Virus record (IMG/VR): IMGVR_UViG_3300025310_000003
Coordinates: 1 to 30,778 of that record
DNA length: 30,778 bases
Direction: 5' to 3' (one strand)
DNA from: a virus
Numbering within the stretch: position 1 is the stretch's first letter; every line of letters starts with the position of its first letter. A program made the translations under genes and the position numbers. Of the stretch, positions 1,913-30,778 are shown piece after piece. The notes under the pieces were generated by a model that had not been told where the DNA came from, made no database searches, and worked only from the letters and a program-made list of their open reading frames with translations.

Positions 1913-2553
1913 TGGTGGACCCGTCGGCCCGTCAGGCGTCTCTGGTAGCCCAGGGCAACGCCGTGGCAGCTCAGGCAGCGGACCGCGTGGCCGTGATCAT
2001 GGGCGCCAGTCTGACCGGCGCCGCGCAGGCCGCCGTGGCTGCGACCAAGGGCGATTCTGGCGCTGGGCTGGATGAGGCGTCTGCGGACATGGCTGCCGCC
2101 CGCGCAGCCATGGCCACCATGGCCACGGATACGGAGGCAGCCCTGGCAGCCACGGCAACCCTGGCAGCCCTGGTCGCCATGGTGTCTGGTTGGCATGGGG
2201 AAATCGCCCTGGCCAACCAGGAATTGCCAGATGGCCTGGATATCGTGGCGGACGTAGCGGGGAACCAGCTCGTGGATGCCATGCGGTCCTGGCCCATCGT
2301 TGGCCACACGGCAGAGGAATGGGGTGCCAACCTGGCACGGTCCTGGCGCTTCCAGGCGGACGGCTTGGTAGGCAATGCCGCCGCCACCGGCACAGACGCG
2401 CATCTCGTAGCGGATTTTCTGGACCTTGCCCGGCGCACCCAGGACAACGCCAAGACCTTGGCTGTGGAGGCGTTCCACGCGGGGGCCGGGGCCGCTCGTG
2501 CCGCTATTCCTGCGGCACTGGAGCGTCTGATGGCAGGCGGCATCCATGGCTGA
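1912..2553 (+). CDS. Hypothetical Ala-rich virion protein
   Basis: The in-frame ATG at 1912 overlaps the TGA of the upstream gene (TGATG). The 213-aa ORF ends 8 nt inside the MuF gene. Confidence 0.6.
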   Translation: MVDPSARQASLVAQGNAVAAQAADRVAVIMGASLTGAAQAAVAATKGDSGAGLDEASADMAAARAAMATMATDTEAALAATATLAALVAMVSGWHGEIALANQELPDGLDIVADVAGNQLVDAMRSWPIVGHTAEEWGANLARSWRFQADGLVGNAAATGTDAHLVADFLDLARRTQDNAKTLAVEAFHAGAGAARAAIPAALERLMAGGIHG

Positions 2554-4600
2554 TCCGATCACCCTGACCATCTCCGTCTCCGACCTGGCGGCATCGTTGG
2601 CGAAACAGGACGCCGCTGCACTGGCAACCGGCGCCCTGGACCGGACGCAGGTGTGGTATGAATTCCTGACCCAGGAGGACACCAGGGTCAGGCCCAGCCA
2701 TCGCGCCCTCCATGGGACCGTGTGGCGCAGCGGCGACCCCAACGCACCCGTGCCGCCCCTCGACTACGGATGCCGGTGCTTCATCCGCTATGTGGCGGCG
2801 CCGGGATCGGAGGCTGCCAACATCCTGCCCACAGCGCCGTCCGCGCCGACCACCCAGGCGGAGGCCATAGGTACGTTCCTGGACAAGGATCCGACCCTCA
2901 CAGCCGCAGGCATCGATTGGCGGAAGCTGGCTGCCCAAGCGGATGCGCTGGACCGTGCCGACCGGGAGCGGTTCCTGGCCATGTCCATCGCCAAGGCTGC
3001 TGACATGCCCATGGGGCACGCGCGGGAGGTGGCGCGGATGATCCTGTCCCAGGGCCAAGCCCGCGCCCTCCGCGCCCCGCCGCTGTCGGCGGAGGAGGCC
3101 GCCGCCAAGGCCACGCAGCACGCGGACGCCTGGCCAGTCGTGGACGCCCAGGCCGTCCAGGCCGCAGCCCAGGCCGCAGCCCAGGCCGCAGCCCAGGACG
3201 CCGTGCAGGCGTCCGCCACGGTGAAGGCCAAGGCCAAGGCCATCATGGAGGCTGCCGCCTCCGGGACGTCTCTGGCGCTGGACAAGCCCCTGGCCCTGCC
3301 GGGCGTATTGGGCTGGATCGCAACGAACAAAACCAGCATCCAGACCACCACACGCACGGCATCGCCGGCCGACCTGGCTGGCATGATTCCCACGGTGTCG
3401 AGCCTGGACGGCGCCGACCTGTCCGCTGGCATCACCGGCACGGCCACCACACAGACACCCGTCGTGGCGGTGGAACTGCCGGGCGGAACCTTCATCGTTT
3501 CGGGCCACACCACGGCCATGGTGGCCCTGGCCACGGGGACGTCTGTCCCCGTCACCATCTACACGGCGGCTGCCATCGCCCAGGCCCAAGCCGTTGCAGC
3601 GGCGGCACGGCAGGCCGCTGCCCAGGCTGCCAAGGCCACAGCCGTTGCCCAGGCACAGGCGCAGGCGCAGGCCGCGGCGGCGGTGTCCAAGGCCATGGGC
3701 GGCCCGGACCTTCCGCCTGTCCCGGCGACCATTCCACCCACGGGGAAGATTCCCACGGCGCCGCACAAGCCCTGGGACAAGCCGCAGCCATCCGATCCTG
3801 GCGCCCTGGCATCCTGGAAGGCCAGCCACGTGTCCATCCAGACCCAGGAGCTGCTGGCGACCCTGCGCCCCCAGACCCAGCCGGACCTGGCCGGGAAGCC
3901 GGGTCGCCCGATCACGGCGGACCACGTGGAAGCCATGGTGAGGGATCCAGCCACGCCAGGCGGAACCTTCAGCCGGGACATCTACCGCAGCGACGTGAAG
4001 ATGCGCCAGGCCGACGAGTCTGCGGCCATCATGGACGGCGAGGCCACCACCGAAGAGCGGATGGGCATACGGAAGTTTACCCGCTATTGGGACTTCATCA
4101 TGCGCCGGGTAGACATGGGGGACACTGACGAACAGTTGGCGGCGCATCTGCGCTACCACAAGCCCGGCGACGATGCATCCGATATTCCAGACCTGATCAC
4201 CAAGGCCCGCACATATCACGCGGCGGCATATGCTGCCATGGCCCGCATTCCAGCTCGCCGCTATGAATACCTGTATCGTGGTCACAGGAACCTGACCGCA
4301 GCGGCGGTGGCATCCGTGTTGGGGGCGACAGAACTCGATTTCGGCTCCCTGTCATCGGCCACCACAAACCCGCGCACTGCCGTTGGGTTTGCGAGCGCCA
4401 CGGGCGGGCGCCACGCCATGATATTCCGCATGAAAAACGCTTCCGGACTGCCGATTTCGGCAGTATCGCAGTATCCAGACGAGGATGAGGTTCTCATCTC
4501 CCGCCAGCACCGATACCGTATCACCGGATACGCCCTGGATACAACCGCCTCGGCGCAGGCGCCACGGTGGATCGTAGACCTGGAGCAGATGCACCCATGA
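2546..4600 (+). CDS. MuF / SPP1 gp7-like minor head protein fused to a C-terminal ADP-ribosyltransferase (R-S-E type) toxin domain
   Basis: N-terminus: QEDTRVRPSHRALHGTVW...PLDYGCRCF matches the Phage_Mu_F signature (R.sH..l.G ... nCRC). C-terminus: YLYRG (Arg, cgt at 4276-4278), FGSLSSATT (STS-like, about 4340-4366) and PDEDEVLISR (E-x-E, gag gat gag at 4481-4489). The middle of the protein consists of low-complexity AQAA linkers. Confidence 0.85.
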   Translation: MADPITLTISVSDLAASLAKQDAAALATGALDRTQVWYEFLTQEDTRVRPSHRALHGTVWRSGDPNAPVPPLDYGCRCFIRYVAAPGSEAANILPTAPSAPTTQAEAIGTFLDKDPTLTAAGIDWRKLAAQADALDRADRERFLAMSIAKAADMPMGHAREVARMILSQGQARALRAPPLSAEEAAAKATQHADAWPVVDAQAVQAAAQAAAQAAAQDAVQASATVKAKAKAIMEAAASGTSLALDKPLALPGVLGWIATNKTSIQTTTRTASPADLAGMIPTVSSLDGADLSAGITGTATTQTPVVAVELPGGTFIVSGHTTAMVALATGTSVPVTIYTAAAIAQAQAVAAAARQAAAQAAKATAVAQAQAQAQAAAAVSKAMGGPDLPPVPATIPPTGKIPTAPHKPWDKPQPSDPGALASWKASHVSIQTQELLATLRPQTQPDLAGKPGRPITADHVEAMVRDPATPGGTFSRDIYRSDVKMRQADESAAIMDGEATTEERMGIRKFTRYWDFIMRRVDMGDTDEQLAAHLRYHKPGDDASDIPDLITKARTYHAAAYAAMARIPARRYEYLYRGHRNLTAAAVASVLGATELDFGSLSSATTNPRTAVGFASATGGRHAMIFRMKNASGLPISAVSQYPDEDEVLISRQHRYRITGYALDTTASAQAPRWIVDLEQMHP
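3147..3196 (+). repeat. 12-bp tandem repeat (gccgcagcccag x3, plus degenerate flanks) encoding an (AAQA)n linker inside the MuF gene
   Basis: Read directly: gcccaggccgtccag gccgcagcccag gccgcagcccag gccgcagcccag gac. Confidence 0.8.
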
Positions 4601-7923: not shown

Positions 7924-10328
7924 GCACGTCCGTGTGCACGCTGGATTGGGATGGCGCCACCGGCACCCCGCGCCCATTTCCCACCCAGACCCAGGCGCAG
8001 GCATATGCCACCACTGCCAAGGCGTTCCGCTGGACGAACCCGATGCCTACGAGCGGCGGAGCATTGGTCGTCTGGCAGGATTGCACCAAAGCCCAGGCGG
8101 ACGCCCGCTTGGCTGTCCTGGGCAGCCACGTCGGCAAGCAGACCAGCGTCGTCTATCCCCACGGGACCATCCCGCGCCTGTGGCTGGCCAGCTACACCGG
8201 AGCATGGCAGGCGCAGGCTGGAACCGTCAACGGTGGCGTGTTGACCGTCCAGCTGCACTTCGATGCTGCGGCCAGCCGGCAGACCGGCCCTGACGCTCCC
8301 CAATCCGTAGCTCTGGTGCAAACCGCAGTGGCCCTGCATACGGCCGATGGGTCATGGACCACCAGGCCATGGGAAACCGACTCCGCCGCCCGTGGCGTGG
8401 GGGCCTACCTGGGAGAGGCCCTGGCCTGGCAGGATGGCGCCGCCCCGGACTATACGGTGGCCGGCATGTGGTGCCGCATCGTGAAGCGTGACCCGACCAC
8501 GGGGGGTGTGGCGTCACCGCTGGTGATCTACTGGCGCGGCAAGGTGGCTGGCGTCCGGGTGTCCCGCCTGGAATCCGGCGGCGCCCGCGTCCAGTACCGC
8601 ATGGCCGGCATGCTGCACGCCCTGAATCAATGCCACCTGTCGGAATGGTACGAGTCTCGGAACACCGATTGGCCGGGATGGGTCGATACGTCCAACGCCG
8701 TGGCCAATGTCGGCCAGCCCTTGGATTTCAACGCTGGCGGGCGTGGGGATATGTCTGTCGCAGCCCACGTCCTGCCCAGCGGCGCCGTGTGCCGCGTCCA
8801 CGCCCGTGGGGAAAGGACGACCCCTGGCGCGGTTGGCGTTCGGTGGACCGCCAAGCGAGCTGTGGAAACCATCCTGGCGCATATCCGGCACTGCTGGGGC
8901 TTCCAGGTCGGCCTCGATTTCCCGGACAACCTGGACTATGACGGGCAGTGGGACTGGCAGGGGCGCAATCCGCTGGCCATGATCGCGGCCATCATCTCCC
9001 CCGATACCGGGCGGACCTTCCTGGAATCCGTCGTTGGTGGCGTGCTGACCCTGACCGTCGTGGACATGGAAACCATCCCCGACCCGGCGCCGCCGGCCCT
9101 GGACCTGACGGCCGACGGTGTGCAGGAATGGGCTGTGGATCAGGACCACACCATGGTGGAGGATACCCATTACGTCCAGGCGCCGCAGCCCATATGGATG
9201 CGAACCATTGCGGCTGACGATGTGCTGACCTGGGCGACCAGGCCGACCGGGGATGCCCTGGAACCATGGTATACGGAGGCCGACCAGACGGCCTGGGATG
9301 CATCCAGCGATGAGGCCAGAAAGTCTCCACCGCTGGATGCCGTATTCCGCGCTTGGCAGCTATTCGCCCGATGGGACACGCGGGCGTATTCCGGCCTGAC
9401 CAGGATCCCGTACAAGCGGACCGTCCAGGCCGGGCCTCCGGAGGCTGGCGGCGGCCAGGAAACCGGGGAACTGGAATCGCTCCCGGCAGCGGAATATCCC
9501 AATGCTCGCGTAGCCTGGAAGATGTCCCGCCTGGTGCCGCTGGCGCCCGGCAAGGATTGGACGGACCCCTATGTGGTGACATCCAACCTGGACCCGGTGG
9601 AGGGGCCGCTGATGTATTGGTATAAGCCTATTGCCACGCCGCCCTGGGTGGTGGCGCATCAGGATTTCCAAATCCAGGTCGGTGATGATGGTGGGAGCAT
9701 CATTGTGGGCCGCACGCCTGCGGATGCCGCTGCCATCAAGGCCCGCCTGGCGGCCGGGTGGACGCCGGTATTCACCGTGGCCCTCGTTCATCCTCTGGCC
9801 TTCCGCGTGTCAGCCACAACGGAAGCTGTGGGCGGATCACCGCCATGCACCGACCTGCGGCGGAGTGGATGCACCTACCTGACCGGGGATTATTGGACCC
9901 AGGTGCGCGTGCCGGACCGGACCGTGTTCAAGCTCGATGCATCCAGCGCGGCCGTCCTGGCTGCGGAGGGCCGGAGGGATCAGGGCGGCGACCCCGTGGC
10001 CTTCCGGGACAAGATGCGGACGTGGTGGTTAAGCCCGGACGGCACCGCTACCTGGACCGTTCGCGGCATCGCGGACGATGCCGGCGCCATGCTGGCAACC
10101 ATGGTGGACCAAGCCACGGTACGCTGGGGCGCCGACGAAGGCGACACCGCGTCGGTGGCGGTGCGCGCCCCGGTGGTCCGGGTGTCGTTCGACTTCCGGG
10201 CAGCATCCGCTTCCGTGTCCTACCAGGCCAGCCGCACCCTGGCCGGCTTCCGCGTGCCGTCGGTTGTCCAGGGTGCGCTGGGTGTAGGGTTGGCTCGCGG
10301 TCAGTATCAGTCCAGCGGGGGCGCATGA
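7920..10328 (+). CDS. Large tail tip / baseplate hub protein
   Basis: 802 aa starting at the ATG at 7920 (ATGA overlap). Assigned from its position after the tape measure and minor tail protein. No enzyme motif recognised. Confidence 0.6.
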   Translation: MSTSVCTLDWDGATGTPRPFPTQTQAQAYATTAKAFRWTNPMPTSGGALVVWQDCTKAQADARLAVLGSHVGKQTSVVYPHGTIPRLWLASYTGAWQAQAGTVNGGVLTVQLHFDAAASRQTGPDAPQSVALVQTAVALHTADGSWTTRPWETDSAARGVGAYLGEALAWQDGAAPDYTVAGMWCRIVKRDPTTGGVASPLVIYWRGKVAGVRVSRLESGGARVQYRMAGMLHALNQCHLSEWYESRNTDWPGWVDTSNAVANVGQPLDFNAGGRGDMSVAAHVLPSGAVCRVHARGERTTPGAVGVRWTAKRAVETILAHIRHCWGFQVGLDFPDNLDYDGQWDWQGRNPLAMIAAIISPDTGRTFLESVVGGVLTLTVVDMETIPDPAPPALDLTADGVQEWAVDQDHTMVEDTHYVQAPQPIWMRTIAADDVLTWATRPTGDALEPWYTEADQTAWDASSDEARKSPPLDAVFRAWQLFARWDTRAYSGLTRIPYKRTVQAGPPEAGGGQETGELESLPAAEYPNARVAWKMSRLVPLAPGKDWTDPYVVTSNLDPVEGPLMYWYKPIATPPWVVAHQDFQIQVGDDGGSIIVGRTPADAAAIKARLAAGWTPVFTVALVHPLAFRVSATTEAVGGSPPCTDLRRSGCTYLTGDYWTQVRVPDRTVFKLDASSAAVLAAEGRRDQGGDPVAFRDKMRTWWLSPDGTATWTVRGIADDAGAMLATMVDQATVRWGADEGDTASVAVRAPVVRVSFDFRAASASVSYQASRTLAGFRVPSVVQGALGVGLARGQYQSSGGA

Positions 10329-14654: not shown

Positions 14655-15401
14655 TCATGGCGCGGGCGCCGGCCGGGCACCTGCCGCCGACTCCTGGGCA
14701 TTCCCCTGTCTGGCGCGGTGGCGCTTCCCCCACGCAGTGGCGACCGATTCGTAATCCTTGGCCCAGCGGGATTGTATGCCATGGGCGCGGCGAGCGGCGG
14801 CGCATGCGGCCAGGCATGCCAGTGCATCCTCCAGGCACGTGGCGCCCGCGTCCAGCGCCAGCCCCTGCCATTCCTCCAATGCCGTGTCATCGCTGGCGAA
14901 CCGATGCCGGGCCAGGGCCGTGCGGAATCGTTCGCGGGATGACTTGAGCGGTGGCTTCGGTGGCGTCGGTGGCGTTGGTGGCGTCGGTGGCGTTGGTGGC
15001 GTTGGTGGCGTTGGTGGCGTTGGTGGCGTTGGTGGCGGGACTGCCAGCTGGGTTGGCGCCTGGCCTGGGAGCGGGCGCTTCCACCGGGCCTCGGCAGCCA
15101 TGCGGGCGCGGGCCAGGGTCCGCCCATAGGACTCCACGGCATCTGCCGGATAGTAGGCCACCACCAGATCCGACCCCTCCCACCGCCAGAGGGGGCATGG
15201 CCGTGATACTTCCGCCAGCGTCACCCGCGCCTGCTGTTGCCAGTGCCGGTCCCCCCATGTTTTGCAGTCGGCTATCCGTCCACCGTCTGCCAGCATCACG
15301 GCCAGCCGGAGCAGGCATATCCAGGTGGCCCGATCCAGTGGTTCCGCCCCGATGAATGCGACGCTGTCCAATGCTTCAGCGGAGATGTAGATATGTCGCA
15401 T
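14655..15401 (-). CDS. DUF1376-like early protein with a (TPP)8 linker (possible replication/primosome-associated role)
   Basis: MRHIYISAEALDSVAFIGAEPLDRATWICLLRLAVMLADGGRI resembles the DUF1376 N-terminal domain. The central linker reads PPPTPPTPPTPPTPPTPPTPPTPPTPPKPP. An alternative start at 15458 lies inside a strong hairpin. Confidence 0.55.
   Translation of the reverse strand: MRHIYISAEALDSVAFIGAEPLDRATWICLLRLAVMLADGGRIADCKTWGDRHWQQQARVTLAEVSRPCPLWRWEGSDLVVAYYPADAVESYGRTLARARMAAEARWKRPLPGQAPTQLAVPPPTPPTPPTPPTPPTPPTPPTPPTPPKPPLKSSRERFRTALARHRFASDDTALEEWQGLALDAGATCLEDALACLAACAAARRAHGIQSRWAKDYESVATAWGKRHRARQGNAQESAAGARPAPAP
14951..15040. repeat. 9-bp tandem repeat (ggtggcgtY), about 10 units, encoding the (TPP)n linker on the - strand
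   Basis: Read directly: ggtggcttc ggtggcgtc ggtggcgtt ggtggcgtc ggtggcgtt x5 ggtggcggg. Confidence 0.9.
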
Positions 15402-16448: not shown

Positions 16449-17146
16449 GCGGCCCCCGCGTGATGAGCCGCCATGCCCTCAAGCTCGGTCAGGGCTGCCA
16501 TCTTGTTCATCCCGTGCTTGGTTTTCAAAGCGTTCGCCTGATGATGGGCTTCCTCCGCCCCCAGGGCGCTCGTCAGCTTGGCCAGGGCGGCATCCCACCT
16601 GGCCCTCCCGGTGGCCTGTCCCGTGGGCCCTGCGGGCGGGGCGGCATGCTCGGGCGTGGGCGGCGCGGCATGCTCGGGCGTGGGCGGCGCCTGGCGTTGG
16701 TTCGGCTGGCGATCGTAGCGCCGCTCGACGTGGTGGCCGTCCGCCGCATTGCCATCATCATCATCGTCTGCGGCCAAGCCCAACAGGGCCGTGATGCCGT
16801 AGCGGCGGGCGTAGGTGATCGCGGAGCCGAGGGCCTGGTTTCCGGGCCTGTCTGTCTTTACCGGAACAGCCGTTCCCAGGAACTCCCCCGAGGCGTGAAC
16901 GATGATGGTTTCCACAGACAGCCCGTTGTCGTCGGTGTGCACCGTATGGACCACGGACAGGCCGTTGGCTGCCAGCGGCCCACGGATGCAGTCCATGATG
17001 TTGTCCAGCGTGGCATAATCGAAGGAATACGGTGATCCCTCACGCGGGCGGACCGTGACCGACCTGTTTTTGGTCAGGGGTTGGAAGGCGGCATGGGCCT
17101 TGGCCAACGCGGTGGCCAGGTTTGCCATGGTTTCGGAACGGATCAT
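16445..17146 (-). CDS. erf: ERF-family single-strand annealing recombinase
   Basis: LATALAKAHAAFQPLTKN...YSFDYATLDNIMDCIRGPLAANGL...HASGEF...QALGSAITYARRYGITALLGLAADDDDDG is the classic ERF pattern. GGAG lies 8 nt upstream of the ATG at 17146. Confidence 0.85.
   Translation of the reverse strand: MIRSETMANLATALAKAHAAFQPLTKNRSVTVRPREGSPYSFDYATLDNIMDCIRGPLAANGLSVVHTVHTDDNGLSVETIIVHASGEFLGTAVPVKTDRPGNQALGSAITYARRYGITALLGLAADDDDDGNAADGHHVERRYDRQPNQRQAPPTPEHAAPPTPEHAAPPAGPTGQATGRARWDAALAKLTSALGAEEAHHQANALKTKHGMNKMAALTELEGMAAHHAGAA
16641..16688. repeat. Perfect 24-bp tandem duplication inside erf (encodes APPTPEHA x2)
   Basis: gcggcatgctcgggcgtgggcggc occurs twice in direct succession. Confidence 0.9.
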
Positions 17147-17202
17147 GGGATGGACTCCAGGGGTGGACGATGGGGTGGGATGAGCGGCGAGCGGACCGAG
17201 CG

Positions 17203-17328
17203 TCACGGCCTCCGGATGAGGCGCCACGCGGCGCGGACCAGGAAGCGGACCAGGCGCAGGTCCCGCGTCATGTCGCGAGCGCTGCGGCCCTGGCCACCGA
17301 GGATGAGGGGAGGGGTTGGGTCATGCAT
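17203..17328 (-). CDS. Small (41 aa) first gene of the leftward early operon, function unknown
   Basis: ATG CAT GAC ... CCG TGA translates to MHDPTPPLILGGQGRSARDMTRDLRLVRFLVRAAWRLIRRP. About 36 of 41 codons end in G/C. AGGAG lies 7 nt upstream. It is too short for the supplied ORF track. Confidence 0.55.
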   Translation of the reverse strand: MHDPTPPLILGGQGRSARDMTRDLRLVRFLVRAAWRLIRRP

Positions 17329-17335
17329 GGGTCGG

Positions 17336-17374
17336 CTCCTGGGCGGAGTGATATGCTCGCTGGGCATATGTCAA
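17336..17374 (-). promoter_or_regulatory. Leftward early promoter plus RBS: TTGACA-N15-TATCAC, then AGGAG
   Basis: The - strand reads cggctgTTGACAtatgcccagcgagcaTATCACtccgcccAGGAGccgacccATG. The spacer and -10 carry GAGCATAT and CATATG copies of the motif repeated in the control region. Confidence 0.6.
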
Positions 17375-17547
17375 CAGCCGGGCGCAGCCCAGGATGCGCG
17401 GATGGCTGGATCGTGGGCTGGCCAGGAACCCCTGGTGGTGTGTCCGCGAGGCGTGGTGTTCGAACAGACACCAACGGAACACCCAGGGCCACCACCACCG
17501 CCCCAGGCCGTGTGACCTGGGGCCTGTCGTGTCCGTGAGCTGCTCCC

Positions 17548-17634
17548 ATGCACATGCTCATGCTCACGCATATGCTCACGCATATGCTCATGCACATGCT
17601 CGCGCATATGCTCACGCATATGCTCACGCAATGC
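17548..17634. repeat. Iteron-like array: 12-bp units NNGCAYATGCTC x6, plus a 6-bp half unit and a degenerate end
   Basis: atgcacatgctc atgctc acgcatatgctc acgcatatgctc atgcacatgctc gcgcatatgctc acgcatatgctc acgcaatgct. All three frames on each strand give nonsense repeat peptides (HAHAYAHAY, EHMREHM, SICVSIC). Confidence 0.85.
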
Positions 17635-17635
17635 T

Positions 17636-17674
17636 ATGAAATGAAATGAAATGAAATGAAATGAAAGGGGGGGG
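17636..17674. repeat. (ATGAA)6 pentanucleotide microsatellite followed by A and a G8 homopolymer. This is the most AT-rich spot in the genome.
   Basis: atgaa x6 at 17636-17665, then a, then gggggggg at 17667-17674. A 7-bp GC hairpin (ggggcgc gga gcgcccc) follows at 17679-17695. Confidence 0.9.
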
Positions 17675-17900
17675 ATAGGGGGCGCGGAGCGCCCCAGCCC
17701 CGCCCGCCAGGGACACACCCGGCAGGAGCACGGCACCCCGATGCGTCACGCGACCCCCCAGGGACAAGGCCCATGCCAGAGATGGCCTGACGCACGGCCG
17801 CAAGATGGTCAATTTGCGAGGATCGGACCTCGGACCGGCCACGGACACCATCCCAGATAAAAAGCCCGCAAATCGACGAAAAAACGGTGACACATTTTGT

Positions 17901-17928
17901 CAATGCTTGAGCATATGCTCAAGCATTG
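17901..17928. promoter_or_regulatory. Perfect 28-bp palindrome CAATGCTTGAGCAT|ATGCTCAAGCATTG (candidate operator)
   Basis: The reverse complement of caatgcttgagcat is atgctcaagcattg. The core GAGCATATGCTC shares the ATATGCTC unit with the iteron array. Confidence 0.8.
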
Positions 17929-18116
17929 CATCCCGACATGCACCCCACCCTGCGGGCGTGCTGCACGTGGTCCCAGGGCCACCTCGCACGGGTCGCGCCA
18001 GCGCCGCCGTCCTCGGCTCGGTTGGCCAGACCTGCCAGACCTTCACATGGCCATCCGCACGCGCTGGCCATGGAATTGACCCCCCATAAATCGGGAGCTG
18101 GCATGACATCGACCGC

Positions 18117-18266
18117 ATGGATGAGCTGTCCCAGATGGCTGAGCGCCTCGGAGTCTCGCCCGGTCTGGTGCGCCGCCTCATCCGCACCGGCTACCGGAAC
18201 GTCCGCATCGCTGCTGTTGATCTCGCCGCCTATCTCGCCACCGTCACGACGAAGGAAACGCCGTGA
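18117..18266 (+). CDS. Small helix-turn-helix DNA-binding protein (Xis/AlpA/MerR-like), first gene of the rightward early operon
   Basis: MDELSQMAERLGVSPGLVRRLIRTGYRNVRIAAVDLAAYLATVTTKETP (49 aa, below the ORF-track cutoff). High GC3. Its stop overlaps the GTG of the next gene (GTGA). Confidence 0.6.
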   Translation: MDELSQMAERLGVSPGLVRRLIRTGYRNVRIAAVDLAAYLATVTTKETP

Positions 18267-18688
18267 GCGACCTCCATGCTCGACCGCATGACCGAGCCTG
18301 CATCCGCTGGACATATCGGGTGTTGGAACTGCTGATGGACATGCTCTGCACGCCGACCCGCTCTGCTGCTGCAATGAAAAAGCTGCGCCGCGCCGAGTAC
18401 GGTCACCCGAGCAGTCAGGATGACATGGCCGCTTTCGACTCCGCTCTGGAATCGGTGCGCGCCGAGCTGCTCGACATGGCACCACATGGACTGGGTGGGG
18501 TTGGGGTCACGCATGACATCATGGGGCAGCATGGCAACCAGCTGCGCTTCGACATCATCCACGAACGCGCGTGCGGCGGCTGGTTTCCGATGCAACCGTC
18601 AAGCCCGAACGCCCAGGCTCGCACGCGTGATCCACAGACCGAGGCAGAGCGGCATGCACGCGCCGAAGAACTGGCATGCACGCTATGA
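18263..18688 (+). CDS. Hypothetical early protein (141 aa)
   Basis: GTG start with AGGAA 6 nt upstream. High GC3. Its stop overlaps the next ATG. Confidence 0.55.
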   Translation: MSDLHARPHDRACIRWTYRVLELLMDMLCTPTRSAAAMKKLRRAEYGHPSSQDDMAAFDSALESVRAELLDMAPHGLGGVGVTHDIMGQHGNQLRFDIIHERACGGWFPMQPSSPNAQARTRDPQTEAERHARAEELACTL

Positions 18689-18927
18689 ACTTCGGTGATC
18701 GCTGCCCATGGTGCGGACACATCATGGACCACAGCCAAGCCATCATCGTCACGGTGCATGGTGACATGATGCACGCCCGGTGCGAGGATGTTCGAAACGC
18801 ACAGATCAGGCGCGACCGCACGCGAGCGGATGCGCCGCCGCGACAGGCGACCGGCATAGGAGCGCAACCACTGACATATCCATCCGAGGCAAAACCCGGC
18901 GCGACTGCCCAGCCTGCGGGTCAATGA
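18685..18927 (+). CDS. Hypothetical early protein with an N-terminal C-x2-C ... H ... C metal-binding pattern
   Basis: MNFGDRCPWCGHIMDH...HARCEDV, with ATGA overlap with the upstream stop. The C-terminal half has poor GC3, so its real 3' end is uncertain. Confidence 0.45.
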   Translation: MNFGDRCPWCGHIMDHSQAIIVTVHGDMMHARCEDVRNAQIRRDRTRADAPPRQATGIGAQPLTYPSEAKPGATAQPAGQ

Positions 18928-19229
18928 CGATGCGGGCGGTCCGGGTCGAGCAGGGCGGACGAAGCTGGCGCGAGGTTCCATGCGAGCGCGGATACCATGC
19001 CAAGGGCAGCAGGATCGACCGCACGACGTACAGCACGCTCGCGCCAGAGGATGCGACTGCGCTGCGCTTCATCCGCGACGCCATCCAGCGAGCCGGAGAC
19101 GCAGAGCGGTGCGGTGACGATCGGCTGCGCCGCCACCTGTACACGCCTGCGCGCGCGCATATCAACCGACGTCAGCCACGCCTGCGCCGCACGCTCGGGC
19201 TTCCTCCCATCACACCGGAGAACACATGA
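18924..19229 (+). CDS. Hypothetical early protein (101 aa from ATG 18924; possibly longer, from GTG 18780)
   Basis: ATGA overlap at 18924. The same frame is open upstream and encodes a CPACG knuckle, so the start is ambiguous. Confidence 0.5.
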   Translation: MTMRAVRVEQGGRSWREVPCERGYHAKGSRIDRTTYSTLAPEDATALRFIRDAIQRAGDAERCGDDRLRRHLYTPARAHINRRQPRLRRTLGLPPITPENT

Positions 19230-19639
19230 CCATCACACAGTCCATCACCGTCGAGCTGAACATTGCCGACCTTCCGGACCCGCGACCGTTCGACATCGAC
19301 GAGGGTGTACGCCTGGGATGCCTGACGCTCTGCGATCCGATGGTTGACGAGGACGACGGTGGCACCGGCATGAAGGACATCGAAGCACGGTGGCCCTGCA
19401 CATCGAACGAAGCCATGTCCTACCACAGCTGGTTCCGCTCCTATGCTCTGCCCATGCTTGCCGCTGGCGGATGCCTGCGCGTGGAGGTCCAGACCGACGA
19501 GGTGCGCGCCGGGCTGTATCAGGCGTTTCGCGGCGATGACCCGCGCGCCTACATGGTCATCACACGCAACGCTCTGGTTGCACCCGGTGCACAACCGGAA
19601 GCGGTCAGAGCGATCATCGACGGTGACGGCCATGCCTGA
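19226..19639 (+). CDS. Hypothetical acidic early protein (137 aa)
   Basis: ATGA overlap with the upstream stop. The protein is strongly D/E-rich (DLPDPRPFDIDEG..., DPMVDEDDGG). Confidence 0.6.
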   Translation: MTITQSITVELNIADLPDPRPFDIDEGVRLGCLTLCDPMVDEDDGGTGMKDIEARWPCTSNEAMSYHSWFRSYALPMLAAGGCLRVEVQTDEVRAGLYQAFRGDDPRAYMVITRNALVAPGAQPEAVRAIIDGDGHA

Positions 19640-19708
19640 TACCGACCACCTGTCCACGATCGACGGCACGCCGCGGCTGCATGTGGCGTGGCGAGGATTC
19701 CCTGCAAC

Positions 19709-19849
19709 GTGGTGTCGGTCGTGCAGGTTGCGGCTGGCGTGGCGGCGATGGTCGTGGCGGGTGGCCTGGGGGTGTCACGCCTGTTCGTAGCGAGGAGGAT
19801 ACGCGGTGTGATCGTGGCGACAGGGCCGATGCCGACACCCCGCACCTGA
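19709..19849 (+). CDS. Possible small membrane protein (46 aa from GTG 19709, or 53 aa from GTG 19688)
   Basis: This frame has about 80% GC3, against about 59% for the overlapping frame of the 19681 ORF. It encodes VVQVAAGVAAMVVAGGLGVSRLFV followed by a basic tail. Its stop overlaps the ATG at 19849 (TGATG). Confidence 0.35.
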   Translation: MVSVVQVAAGVAAMVVAGGLGVSRLFVARRIRGVIVATGPMPTPRT

Positions 19850-20187
19850 TGATCAGGGCTGCCGTGGCTCATGACCGGGATGGGGCCAGAGCCTTGCGCG
19901 ATAACCAGGAGACATATGCTCCCGTGCGCATGAGGCACATTCCCACCACGGACGCCAAAGCCATGGGCGCCCGCATCCGGCAGGCCCGCAGGAACGCTGG
20001 ACTCACCCAGGTTCAGGCCAGCCGCAGGGCCGGCATGTCGCAATCCCACCTGTCCCGATGTGAGTGTGGCGCCAAGACACCCAGTCTGGCAACCGCCAAG
20101 GCCTTGGCTCGCGCCCTGAACACCACCACAGCCGCCATCCTGGAAGGCGCAGGACGCGCTGAAACGCCATCGATGCCGGCGTCCTAA
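19849..20187 (+). CDS. XRE / Cro-CI family HTH transcriptional regulator (alternative start ATG 19930)
   Basis: MGARIRQARRNAGLTQVQASRRAGMSQSHLSRCECGAKTPSLATAKALARAL is a textbook XRE HTH. The part of the 168-aa ORF upstream of 19849 has poor GC3. Confidence 0.8.
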   Translation: MIRAAVAHDRDGARALRDNQETYAPVRMRHIPTTDAKAMGARIRQARRNAGLTQVQASRRAGMSQSHLSRCECGAKTPSLATAKALARALNTTTAAILEGAGRAETPSMPAS

Positions 20188-20205
20188 AACGCCATCGATG
20201 CCGGC
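20162..20205. repeat. 19-bp perfect direct repeat AAACGCCATCGATGCCGGC x2 (20162-20180 and 20187-20205), bracketing the XRE stop codon
   Basis: Read directly. Each copy contains the ATCGAT palindrome. Confidence 0.9.
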
Positions 20206-20307
20206 CGGGCGATCGCATGCCCCCTGCTGGACCACGCGATCATCGGCGGTCGGCGCCGCTTCGTGTCGTTGCACCAGGAGATGGCCTACCGGTGGAGCGT
20301 GGCCTGA
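20188..20307 (+). pseudogene. RadC (JAB/MPN)-like C-terminal remnant with no start codon, in frame directly after the XRE TAA
   Basis: NAIDAGRAIACPLLDHAIIGGRRRFVSLHQEMAYRWSVA* resembles the RadC C-terminus (...lgi.vLDHiIig.g.yvSl.e.g). About 35 of 39 codons end in G/C. The catalytic HxHPSG part is absent. Confidence 0.4.
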
Positions 20308-20309
20308 CC

Positions 20310-20502
20310 ATGTCCGACTGGCGCTCCCGCGTGACGGTCGCTGCGGCGCTGATCGCAGCCTGGCAGGTGCTGTTCGGCGGCAACCCGCAGCGGGGGCTGG
20401 CATGGGCACACGCACCAGCTGGTCATCCGGTGCACGGACACAGCGGACCAGGAAGCCACGGCCGCACGCCTGACGGGCGGGGACGACCGCGTGGTGGAGT
20501 AA
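20310..20502 (+). pseudogene. Possible frameshifted small membrane-protein gene
   Basis: The ATG frame at 20310 (MSDWRSRVTVAAALIAAWQVLFGGNPQRGLAW) has about 93% GC3 up to roughly 20400 and then falls to about 50%. Over 20419-20499 the +1 frame (QLVIRCTDTADQEATAARLTGGDDRVVE*) has about 89% GC3. Confidence 0.3.
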
Positions 20503-20528
20503 CGGCCGCAGCCGGATAGGATGCCTCC

Positions 20529-20894
20529 ATGGCACGTGGACCAGGGCGGCCGCCGCGCATGATGACGCCTCAGGAATTGGACCAGGCGGAAACGATGGCA
20601 GGCCTGGGTCTACGCGACGATCAGATCGCCCAGGTCCTCGGTATGGCTGAGCGCACCATGACGCGTCATGCGCGGGACCGCCTCCATCGCGGCCGTGCCA
20701 AGGCCCTGGCGGCTGTGGCGCAAACGTGCTACCGCCTGGCCACCAGCGGCAGGTGCCCGGCGGCAACGTTCTTCTACCTCAAAACGCAGGGCCGCTGGCA
20801 GGAGGTGGACCGCAGCGTCCACGTGGACGCCAACAGCACAGCTGGAACCGTCCGCGTGGTGATCCCCCCCGACCCGTCACCGAAGCCTGGATAG
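20529..20894 (+). CDS. terS: Terminase small subunit (HTH-containing)
   Basis: It sits immediately upstream of terL. GLRDDQIAQVLGMAERTMTRH is an HTH, and ATFFYLKTQGRWQE matches the a.iFwLKtr.gW.e motif common in small terminases. AGGA lies 7 nt upstream. Confidence 0.75.
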   Translation: MARGPGRPPRMMTPQELDQAETMAGLGLRDDQIAQVLGMAERTMTRHARDRLHRGRAKALAAVAQTCYRLATSGRCPAATFFYLKTQGRWQEVDRSVHVDANSTAGTVRVVIPPDPSPKPG

Positions 20895-30531: not shown

Positions 30532-30669
30532 GTGAAATACCGTATCGTGCATGCATCCGGCTGGGTCGAGTTTGCGCACGAAGCAGCCGCCATCGTGTAC
30601 CGGGACGAACACCATCCCGGCTCCCCCATCATCACCCTGCCCCTCGACCCACCCGGTCCTCTGGAGTAA
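30532..30669 (+). CDS. Small hypothetical protein (45 aa from GTG 30532)
   Basis: The portion of the 30484..30669 ORF that does not overlap the upstream gene. Its last codons contain the GGAG that serves the 22..399 gene across the circular junction. Confidence 0.35.
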   Translation: MKYRIVHASGWVEFAHEAAAIVYRDEHHPGSPIITLPLDPPGPLE

Positions 30670-30778
30670 GCCATGCCCCCCCCCCGCACGCAGCCGCCAT
30701 CGGACGATGACAGCACCGCCCGGTACGAACACGGCGAGGGAAGCCGGCGCGGCGGGTCCAGCGGGGACATTCCCTCGG
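30652..30778. repeat. Terminal direct repeat, copy 2; holds a duplicate partial copy (30673..30778) of the 5' end of the 22..399 gene
   Basis: Exact 127-bp identity with 1..127. The unique genome length is therefore 30,651 bp. Confidence 0.95.

Follow-up and report, generated by a model that had tools for sequence, protein, structure and literature searches.

The origin of phage lambda, ori-lambda, lies within gene O and contains four 18-bp iterons and a 38-bp AT-rich tract; the initiator sites are internally dyad-symmetric and set close together, and the tract that follows them melts easily (PMC3349717). In iteron plasmids, initiator monomers bind direct iterons while initiator dimers bind an inverted repeat in the rep promoter, leading to autorepression (PMC5397158). 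Small MerR/Xis-like helix-turn-helix (HTH) proteins assemble as head-to-tail multimers on direct repeats, with repression of phage or host promoters, as described for BldC of Streptomyces (PMC5859096), Gp36 of mycobacteriophage D29 (PMC12266134) and Apl of phage 186 (PMC7498355). Here we analyse a perfect 28-bp palindrome located at positions 17901-17928 of the viral record IMGVR_UViG_3300025310_000003. The whole stretch of 30,778 nucleotides, to which all coordinates refer, is called the window. Most likely, the palindrome is a control site used by the protein that recognises the probable replication origin of this phage. With moderate confidence, we read it more specifically as the dyad-symmetric part of a module combining an iteron-type origin with an operator, placed where the rightward early operon begins.

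The palindrome is a head-to-head pair of iteron units

The original prediction of perfect self-complementarity over 28 bp proved exact. The sequence at 17901-17928 is CAATGCTTGAGCATATGCTCAAGCATTG, with 14-bp arms, and its symmetry stops at T17900 and C17929, where no extension is possible. It occurs once in the window, also with up to 3 mismatches tolerated, and 0 copies are expected from 100 shuffles. Among 300 first-order Markov genomes simulated with the same composition, none had a perfect palindrome with 14-bp arms, the longest in each having arms of 6-13 bp, and the runner-up perfect palindromes of the real genome have 9-bp arms. The 28-bp palindrome is thus real and not a product of chance.

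Inverted copies of a repeat unit had also been noticed at the centre of the palindrome, and the relation is stronger than claimed. The entire 24-bp core (17903-17926) consists of ATGCTTGAGCAT followed by ATGCTCAAGCAT, two 12-bp iteron units placed head to head, to which CA and TG are added at the ends. Each 12-bp half is identical at 11 of 12 positions to the consensus ATGCTCACGCAT of a direct array described below, and over 24 nt the core shows 88% complementarity to array positions 17596-17619 (pair I1 of the repeat search). Since both halves match the array unit at 11 of 12 positions, the palindrome is a symmetrised head-to-head pair of the iteron, which goes beyond the mere sharing of a core. 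It is an inverted repeat composed of iteron sequence, like the operators bound by Rep dimers. As with RepA of pPS10, RepE of F and pi of R6K, this inverted repeat stands upstream of a putative replication operon and apart from the direct iterons. In contrast to these systems, no two-winged-helix protein of the Rep family is found here, the distance to the first gene is 189 bp, the overlap with a promoter is putative, and the element is carried by a lytic-looking phage and not by a plasmid.

The surroundings are AT-richer than the genome, as had been stated: the GC content is 0.42 in 50-bp windows over 17850-17924, compared to about 0.67 genome-wide, and 17887-17916 is the fifth least stable 30-mer of the genome. 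On the left, the palindrome is flanked by an A-tract-rich segment at 17859-17900 (ATAAAAAG, GAAAAAAC, CATTTTG), which forms the second low-GC patch of the region. On the right, 189 bp separate its edge from the ATG at 18117 of the first rightward gene, close to the 190 bp first estimated. Nearer to this gene, about 50 bp upstream of its start, a second dyad, CATGGCCA-n12-TGGCCATG, was noted at 18045-18072. At the centre of the palindrome, two TATGCT hexamers overlap, one per strand.

As a single strand, the palindrome folds into a 12-14-bp hairpin (-15.2 kcal/mol, z = -4.6). It had been proposed to be either the operator of a dimeric HTH protein or a cruciform-forming origin element. A combination of the two is retained, namely the dyad of an iteron system lying by an origin-like array, whereas cruciform extrusion is a purely thermodynamic possibility. 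A function as a terminator was rejected, as a T-run follows on neither strand.

A probable iteron-type origin lies left of the palindrome

The palindrome belongs to a non-coding stretch of 788 bp (17329-18116) between a leftward gene block and the first rightward gene, which encodes a 49-residue HTH protein, HTH49. No open reading frame (ORF) of this stretch has coding-like composition, and neither a tRNA nor an Rfam family above noise was found in it. The ORFs that cross it have a GC content at third codon positions of 0.56-0.71, against 0.77-0.88 in clearly coding genes. A 33-aa ORF called in public assemblies (MHMLMLTHML...) was rejected as a gene and considered a by-product of the repeat.

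The direct iteron array occupies 17548-17635 on the + strand with a period of 12 bp. Tandem Repeats Finder (TRF) described it with a period of 12, 6.4 copies and 89% matches, the repeat search recovered it as families D1-D3, and the overall count is 6.4-8 copies. The hexamer ATGCTC occurs seven times; from 17560 to 17620, six of these copies follow one another at exactly 12 bp. Each unit is itself nearly dyad-symmetric (ATGCT-CA-CGCAT). The units have diverged from one another, whereas the arms of the palindrome are perfect. The array lies about 270 bp to the left of the palindrome, or 323 bp from centre to centre.

Immediately after the array, the pentanucleotide ATGAA is repeated 6.2 times on the + strand (17636-17666; 100% matches in TRF) and constitutes a candidate DNA-unwinding element. 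The segment 17634-17663 is the least stable 30-mer of the genome, at -32.3 kcal/mol compared to a mean of -46.9 and a standard deviation of 2.95, a departure of about 5 standard deviations. It is followed by a G/C-rich element (17667-17695) formed by eight G (17667-17674) and the hairpin GGGGCGC-gga-GCGCCCC (17679-17695), which has a 7-bp stem in the DNA fold. About 160 bp of GC-rich DNA then separate the G/C element from the A-tract patch next to the palindrome. The region therefore contains tandem direct repeats as putative initiator sites and an adjacent element of low stability, two features of an iteron origin. From this arrangement, we predict that the array, the (ATGAA)6 repeat and the G/C element form a probable iteron-type replication origin. 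The 12-bp spacing also places the putative sites about one helical turn apart, as in the direct repeats bound by Xis/BldC-type proteins. A DnaA-dependent origin was rejected: the motif TTATCCACA, with up to 2 mismatches, gave 32 matches for 34.5 expected and no cluster in the region.

The likeness to ori-lambda resides in the near-dyad units of the array and in the easily melted tract next to them. In contrast to lambda, the array is free-standing in non-coding DNA, its period is 12 bp where lambda has 18-bp iterons set apart by spacers, a pentanucleotide repeat takes the place of the AT-rich tract, the window encodes no O-like protein, and no sequence similarity to lambda O or P was detected.

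The same design recurs in related phages with other sequences

The only contigs carrying this region are 100% identical to the window. The exact 16-mer core gave 28 matches in IMG/VR, all unrelated and mostly on low-GC contigs. Period-12 patterns in IMG/VR and the JGI metagenomes were found at 29 loci, 0 of which share any protein with the window, and several of which resemble His/Met-rich coding repeats.

The three-part design of iterons, short simple repeat and G/C-rich element is nevertheless found in relatives, where its specificity is swapped: it lies inside or beside initiator-like genes, and the repeat sequences are unrelated from one phage to the next. The closest structural relative is IMGVR_UViG_3300042991_000637 (L111), whose TerL, portal and TerS are 75%, 63% and 46% identical to those of the window. 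Its divergent non-coding region of about 610 bp contains GTAATCCAAC seven times, GCAGAGGCAGAT four times and a GC hairpin. A partial duplicate of the unit lies at a centre-to-centre distance of 324 bp, to be compared with 323 bp between array and palindrome in the window. Two inverted iteron cores also form a palindrome, TGATTACaGTAATCA, in an AT-rich patch of this region, about 30-45 bp upstream of the first rightward gene. The non-coding regions of L111 and the window show no sequence similarity. Both are thus divergent regions with an array, a simple repeat, a GC hairpin and a palindrome of inverted cores, and a gene of the family of p141, a product described below, follows in both. They differ in that the first rightward gene of L111 encodes a 231-aa initiator-like protein and not a 49-aa HTH protein, and in that the palindrome arms measure 7 bp in L111 compared to 14 bp here.

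The 231-aa protein belongs to a family with a conserved 120-aa N-terminal domain. In four other relatives (L159, L160, L161 and L163), two to five iterons and a short simple repeat are found within the gene, right after this domain; in L159 and L161, further iteron-like copies precede the start by 24-87 bp. A second initiator-like type is represented by L116, in which a 281-aa gene contains 3.2 copies of a 21-bp iteron followed by an (ACAGT) repeat (9418-9510). The C-terminal domain of this 281-aa protein recurs in L165 and L166. Just upstream of the same gene, we noted a 14-bp inverted repeat, GCATCACCAGATGC / GCATCTGGTGATGC (9039-9052 and 9126-9139, about 75 bp apart), which contains the GATGC that starts the iterons of the gene, as read by eye. 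The array of L163 lies at 2648-2720, and arrays are also present inside a 363-aa ORF of L156 (8199-8318) and at the cut end of the L165 contig (1-61). In L155, direct and inverted copies of GATTTGTCC are combined with 6.6 copies of AGAGT at the 3' end of a Lin1244_N-domain gene. A G/C-rich element follows the simple repeat in L111, L116, L155 and L156 as well. The repeats located inside the initiator-like gene in L116, L156, L159-L161 and L163 recall the organization of lambda gene O.

HTH49 is the leading candidate for the binding protein

HTH49 (18117-18266, + strand) is a minimal HTH_17-like, putatively DNA-binding protein of 49 aa (excisionase/MerR-like). It matches Pfam HTH_17 with an E value of 9.6e-5 and 23 bits, under the cutoff of 27, and TIGR01764 with 19.4 bits, under the cutoff of 28.8. 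It shares 36-37% identity with the 85-87-aa HTH_17 proteins of L116 and L163 (pairwise E 2e-5 to 2e-6) and lacks eight wing residues present in them. Its structure model contains three helices, with a predicted local distance difference test score (pLDDT) of 74. A Foldseek search with this model gave no significant match, and the matches listed cover the helix-turn-helix only. In L116 and L163, the genes of the module are ordered as exonuclease, HTH_17, single-stranded DNA-binding protein (SSB), initiator-like gene and p141-like gene, and the HTH_17 protein is an accessory member.

HTH49 resembles BldC, Apl and Gp36 in that it is very small, HTH_17-like and without dimerisation domain, and in that its gene is next to a short direct-repeat array; it differs from them by family scores under the curated thresholds. 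We know of no case in which BldC, Apl or Gp36 uses a perfect 28-bp inverted pair or acts at an origin. Judging from these sequence features, HTH49 is the most likely binder of the iterons and the palindrome, a candidate that we put forward tentatively. The alternative candidate is XRE87 (19924-20187, + strand), a small XRE-family HTH protein matching Pfam HTH_31 (E 1.8e-14) and HTH_3 (E 2e-12). It could plausibly bind the dyad as a dimer, and from its sequence and position we consider this assignment rather unlikely. XRE87 is encoded on the same strand as HTH49, 2 kb from the palindrome and in a separate mosaic segment. Homologue searches with HTH49 and XRE87, the latter covering 5.8 billion proteins, returned nothing but the proteins themselves. 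The remaining probability goes to some unrecognised protein of the phage or its host.

The gene next to HTH49 encodes p141 (18263-18688, + strand), a member of a small family of 14 clusters at 50% identity. Homologues of p141 include L116_180, at 82% identity, and L111_233 (E 1.6e-6). In all relatives examined, L111, L116, L163, L165 and L166 among them, the gene immediately 3' of the initiator-like gene with iterons belongs to the p141 family, the place that P occupies after O in lambda. When profiles of the p141 family and of the type-A N-terminal domain were searched against PDB sequences, no significant match was obtained, and a single-protein scan of IMG/VR with p141 gave no match.

The window and L116 share 89% nucleotide identity over 1,417 bp, starting 23 bp inside p141 and ending just past p137. 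The cassette p141-p83-p101-p137 (18286-19694; 10141-11557 in L116) is clearly a unit of mosaic exchange between otherwise different phages from different samples. The sequence GCATATGC is absent from the 15 kb of L116 that were scanned. As the homology starts inside p141 and L116 lacks GCATATGC, the motif and its binder belong to the exchanged segment made of the non-coding region and HTH49, and not to the p141-p137 cassette.

Proposed function of the palindrome

These data suggest a module in which one phage-encoded DNA-binding protein would recognise the ATGCTC/GCATATGC core. As a head-to-tail multimer on the direct array, it would assemble the origin and melt (ATGAA)6. The same protein would bind head to head on the palindrome, in the second AT-rich patch, ahead of HTH49, p141 and the genes that follow. 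By analogy with iteron replicons, the palindrome would most likely be an autoregulatory operator over the two back-to-back, -10-like TATGCT hexamers. It might also pair with the array through looping over about 320 bp.

Several observations weigh against this proposal. The proteins of L116 and L163 with which HTH49 aligns are the accessory HTH_17 proteins and not the initiator-like ones, and its role as an origin binder is therefore putative. The genome encodes no recognisable initiator, helicase, primase or SSB, and the window contains neither of the two initiator types of the relatives, nor their SSB. A distance of 189 bp to the first start codon is long for an operator and exceeds the 30-45 bp or so of L111. 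No consensus promoter was found in 17100-20600. With 12 bp, the repeat period is shorter than the iterons of ori-lambda, which measure 18 bp (PMC3349717). IMG/VR pattern scans and protein searches with HTH49 and XRE87 revealed no relative in which the sequence of the region is shared. Finally, the p141 family has no PDB or Pfam match, and its model, with a pLDDT of 48, is unusable.

A more specific scenario is decidedly unlikely. The phage would have lost both the 230-320-aa O-like initiator-like protein and the SSB of its relatives, and the 49-residue HTH_17 protein alone would run a free-standing origin with 12-bp iterons. As a head-to-tail filament it would open the pentanucleotide repeat, and head to head on the palindrome it would shut a symmetric bidirectional promoter, while a p141-family protein would link HTH49 to the host replisome. 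If this were true, HTH49 would be the smallest known phage origin-binding protein, and a protein of Xis/BldC type would act as a replication initiator.

Other copies of the motif and a purely transcriptional operator

In the genome, the 8-mer ATATGCTC is found only in the array, in the palindrome, at 17351 and at 19914, and we estimate from base composition that about 0.6 copies would be expected by chance. At 17349-17375, two degenerate copies (tGATATGCTC and GCATATGtCA) overlap a perfect TTGACA of the - strand (17374 to 17369). ORF41 (17203-17328), the first leftward gene, which has an AGGAG ribosome-binding site, starts 20-45 bp downstream of them, and they form a possible, putative leftward promoter and operator. 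A single exact CATATGCTC (19913-19921, + strand) follows the AGGAG ribosome-binding site of the XRE gene and precedes its start (GTG 19924 or ATG 19930); it may be either a weak extra site or merely a -10-like TATGCT. With a 12-bp matrix derived from the units, the 17351 site scores 8.5 bits and both extra copies score 8.5-8.8 bits, in the range of random genomic matches. The motif copies at 17351 and 19914 are therefore suggestive but weak as additional sites. The XRE protein had been named, with the 49-aa HTH protein, as one to test for binding to the palindrome. The sole link that we found is the 9-mer in front of its gene, whose 12-bp matrix score is at background, and a connection is not supported.

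These copies are relevant to an explanation in purely transcriptional terms, a Cro/CI-like switch in which XRE87 or another HTH dimer, bound to the palindrome and the scattered copies, would time divergent early transcription. The array would then be a high-capacity operator or a sink without a role in replication. The perfect dyad symmetry of an element placed between divergent gene blocks fits such a switch. So do the position of the other 8-9-mer cores, confined to gene-proximal non-coding DNA at 17351, by the perfect TTGACA, and at 19913, before the XRE gene; the nature of XRE87, a small protein of Cro/RstR/DicA type with the HTH domain only; and the repression exerted by Apl and Gp36 through direct-repeat arrays. 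However, the extra copies score like random genomic matches, about 0.6 copies of the 8-mer are expected from base composition, and XRE87 is encoded 2 kb away in another mosaic module while the motif travels with the HTH49 side. The switch also leaves unexplained why the array adjoins the least stable DNA and a GC hairpin, and why the same design occurs inside the initiator-like genes of relatives. On balance, we regard it as unlikely. An operator set of the lambdoid CI/Cro type in the strict sense was rejected: the dyad is single, the leftward genes are a 41-aa ORF, ERF and an exonuclease, and XRE87 is 2 kb away.

Promoter signals around the palindrome

At the left edge of the palindrome, TTGTCA (+ strand, 17897-17902) and TTGACA (- strand, 17903 to 17898) are present as had been reported and overlap as one TTGTCAA. 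A promoter-like role for them is not supported, since neither is paired with a matching -10 and no canonical promoter results. A consensus scan of 17100-20600 found no sigma-70-type promoter and no intrinsic terminator. Between 17250 and 18150, the only TANNNT hexamers of the + strand are the motif-internal TATGCT copies, and the - strand contains the copy of the palindrome plus one other hexamer. No -35 hexamer was found at usable spacing from the TATGCT of the palindrome. Promoter function of the palindrome is therefore putative. In two other places, a -10-like hexamer stands close to a start codon: TAGGAT is 6 nt before the ATG of TerS (20517-20531), and TATGCT is 9 nt before the in-frame ATG 19930 of XRE87 (19915-19932). 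These spacings would fit leaderless or near-leaderless transcripts.

From these signals, the palindrome could be seen as the core of a symmetric bidirectional promoter, the back-to-back TATGCT sequences driving early transcription both ways as -10 elements and the likeness to the repeat reflecting the reuse of a -10-like word. The near exclusivity of the motif TATGCT among the TANNNT hexamers of the region, apart from the one on the - strand, and the leaderless-like spacing at the XRE and TerS genes are in line with this idea, and pseudo-symmetric bidirectional promoters do occur in prokaryotes (PMC10268837, PMC12825309). Against it, no usable -35 is present at suitable spacing, the symmetry reaches 14 bp on each side, well past the -10 hexamer, and the seven tandem copies pointing one way are left without explanation. 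As the main function of the palindrome it is improbable; moreover, it is compatible with an iteron-type operator overlapping a promoter and is hence no true alternative to our preferred reading.

DNA structure and repeat turnover

The hairpin fold of the palindrome and its AT-rich, easily melted surroundings could point to a site recognised by structure, a cruciform or hairpin used for nicking, priming, packaging or telomere resolution. We consider this very improbable. Among the ORFs of the genome, none was assigned to a protelomerase, rolling-circle Rep, integrase or resolvase family; the terminase genes are 2.6 kb away and have a 341-bp non-coding leader of their own with a 19-bp direct repeat; and the match of the arms to the iteron unit points to sequence-specific recognition. 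In particular, a telRL-type protelomerase target was rejected, as no tyrosine-recombinase or protelomerase family was found in any large ORF.

Least probable of all is a non-functional by-product of repeat turnover, two array units inverted and displaced, which would agree with a palindrome built from array units only and with conservation shown by no relative, but direct copies are independently combined with inverted ones in the iteron sets of L111 and L155, and arms that are perfect next to diverged array units argue for selection or a very recent origin.

Genome context

The window corresponds to a complete circular phage genome of about 30,651 bp, from an uncultured phage of a hot spring. 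Positions 1-127 and 30652-30778 are identical and form a 127-bp direct repeat at the two ends, an assembly overlap. This identity of the ends shows that the genome was assembled circularly and is complete, circular or circularly permuted. A 100% identical sequence is present in two public assemblies, one of which, SRR5581334, is a hot-spring metagenome (PMC7674949). Rightward genes extend from 18117 round the circle to about 15400, in the order HTH49; p141, p83, p101 and p137; XRE87; TerS, TerL, portal, scaffold and P22-type coat protein; and large virion proteins. The short leftward block comprises the small ORF41, an ERF annealing protein and a PD-(D/E)XK exonuclease. No integrase, protelomerase, polymerase, helicase, primase, SSB or known initiator family was detected among the ORFs of the genome, and the phage is lytic-looking.

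The lineage is distant from cultured phages: TerL and the coat protein are at most 34% identical to their counterparts, and a blastn search with the region and 8 kb of the genome against 50,697 phage records gave no match. In the host search, a TerL scan of genome contigs gave no match, and the TerL alignment led to one 35-kb contig, binned with a metagenome-assembled genome of Solibacteraceae, at an uninformative 54% identity.

Other features were noted in the genome. A 19-bp direct repeat, AAACGCCATCGATGCCGGC, is present in two copies 25 bp apart (20162-20205) that straddle the XRE87 stop codon. The pair opens the 341-bp non-coding stretch before TerS, where it may serve as a pac or late-promoter element. 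A 684-aa Mu-F-like minor head protein (2546-4600, + strand; PF04233, E 7e-8) has a C-terminal NAD:arginine ADP-ribosyltransferase domain (PF01129, E 3.4e-6, residues 571-663), a domain composition that may mark it as an ADP-ribosylating effector delivered by injection. Near the end of the rightward block, at 14950-15037, GGTGGCGTT is tandemly repeated 9.8 times with 94% matches, within overlapping ORFs of doubtful reality.

Significance

Iteron origins with an inverted-repeat control site are well known, and for general phage biology the locus is an added example, not a new principle. The phage lineage is new, and the locus is unusual in its 12-bp period, in the pentanucleotide repeat that is its probable unwinding element and in the lack of a recognisable initiator. 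The analysis locates the probable origin and early control region in the complete genome of a phage from an uncultured hot-spring lineage. It provides defined DNA sites and two small candidate proteins for binding tests, and the p141 family gains a testable role as the partner of the initiator.

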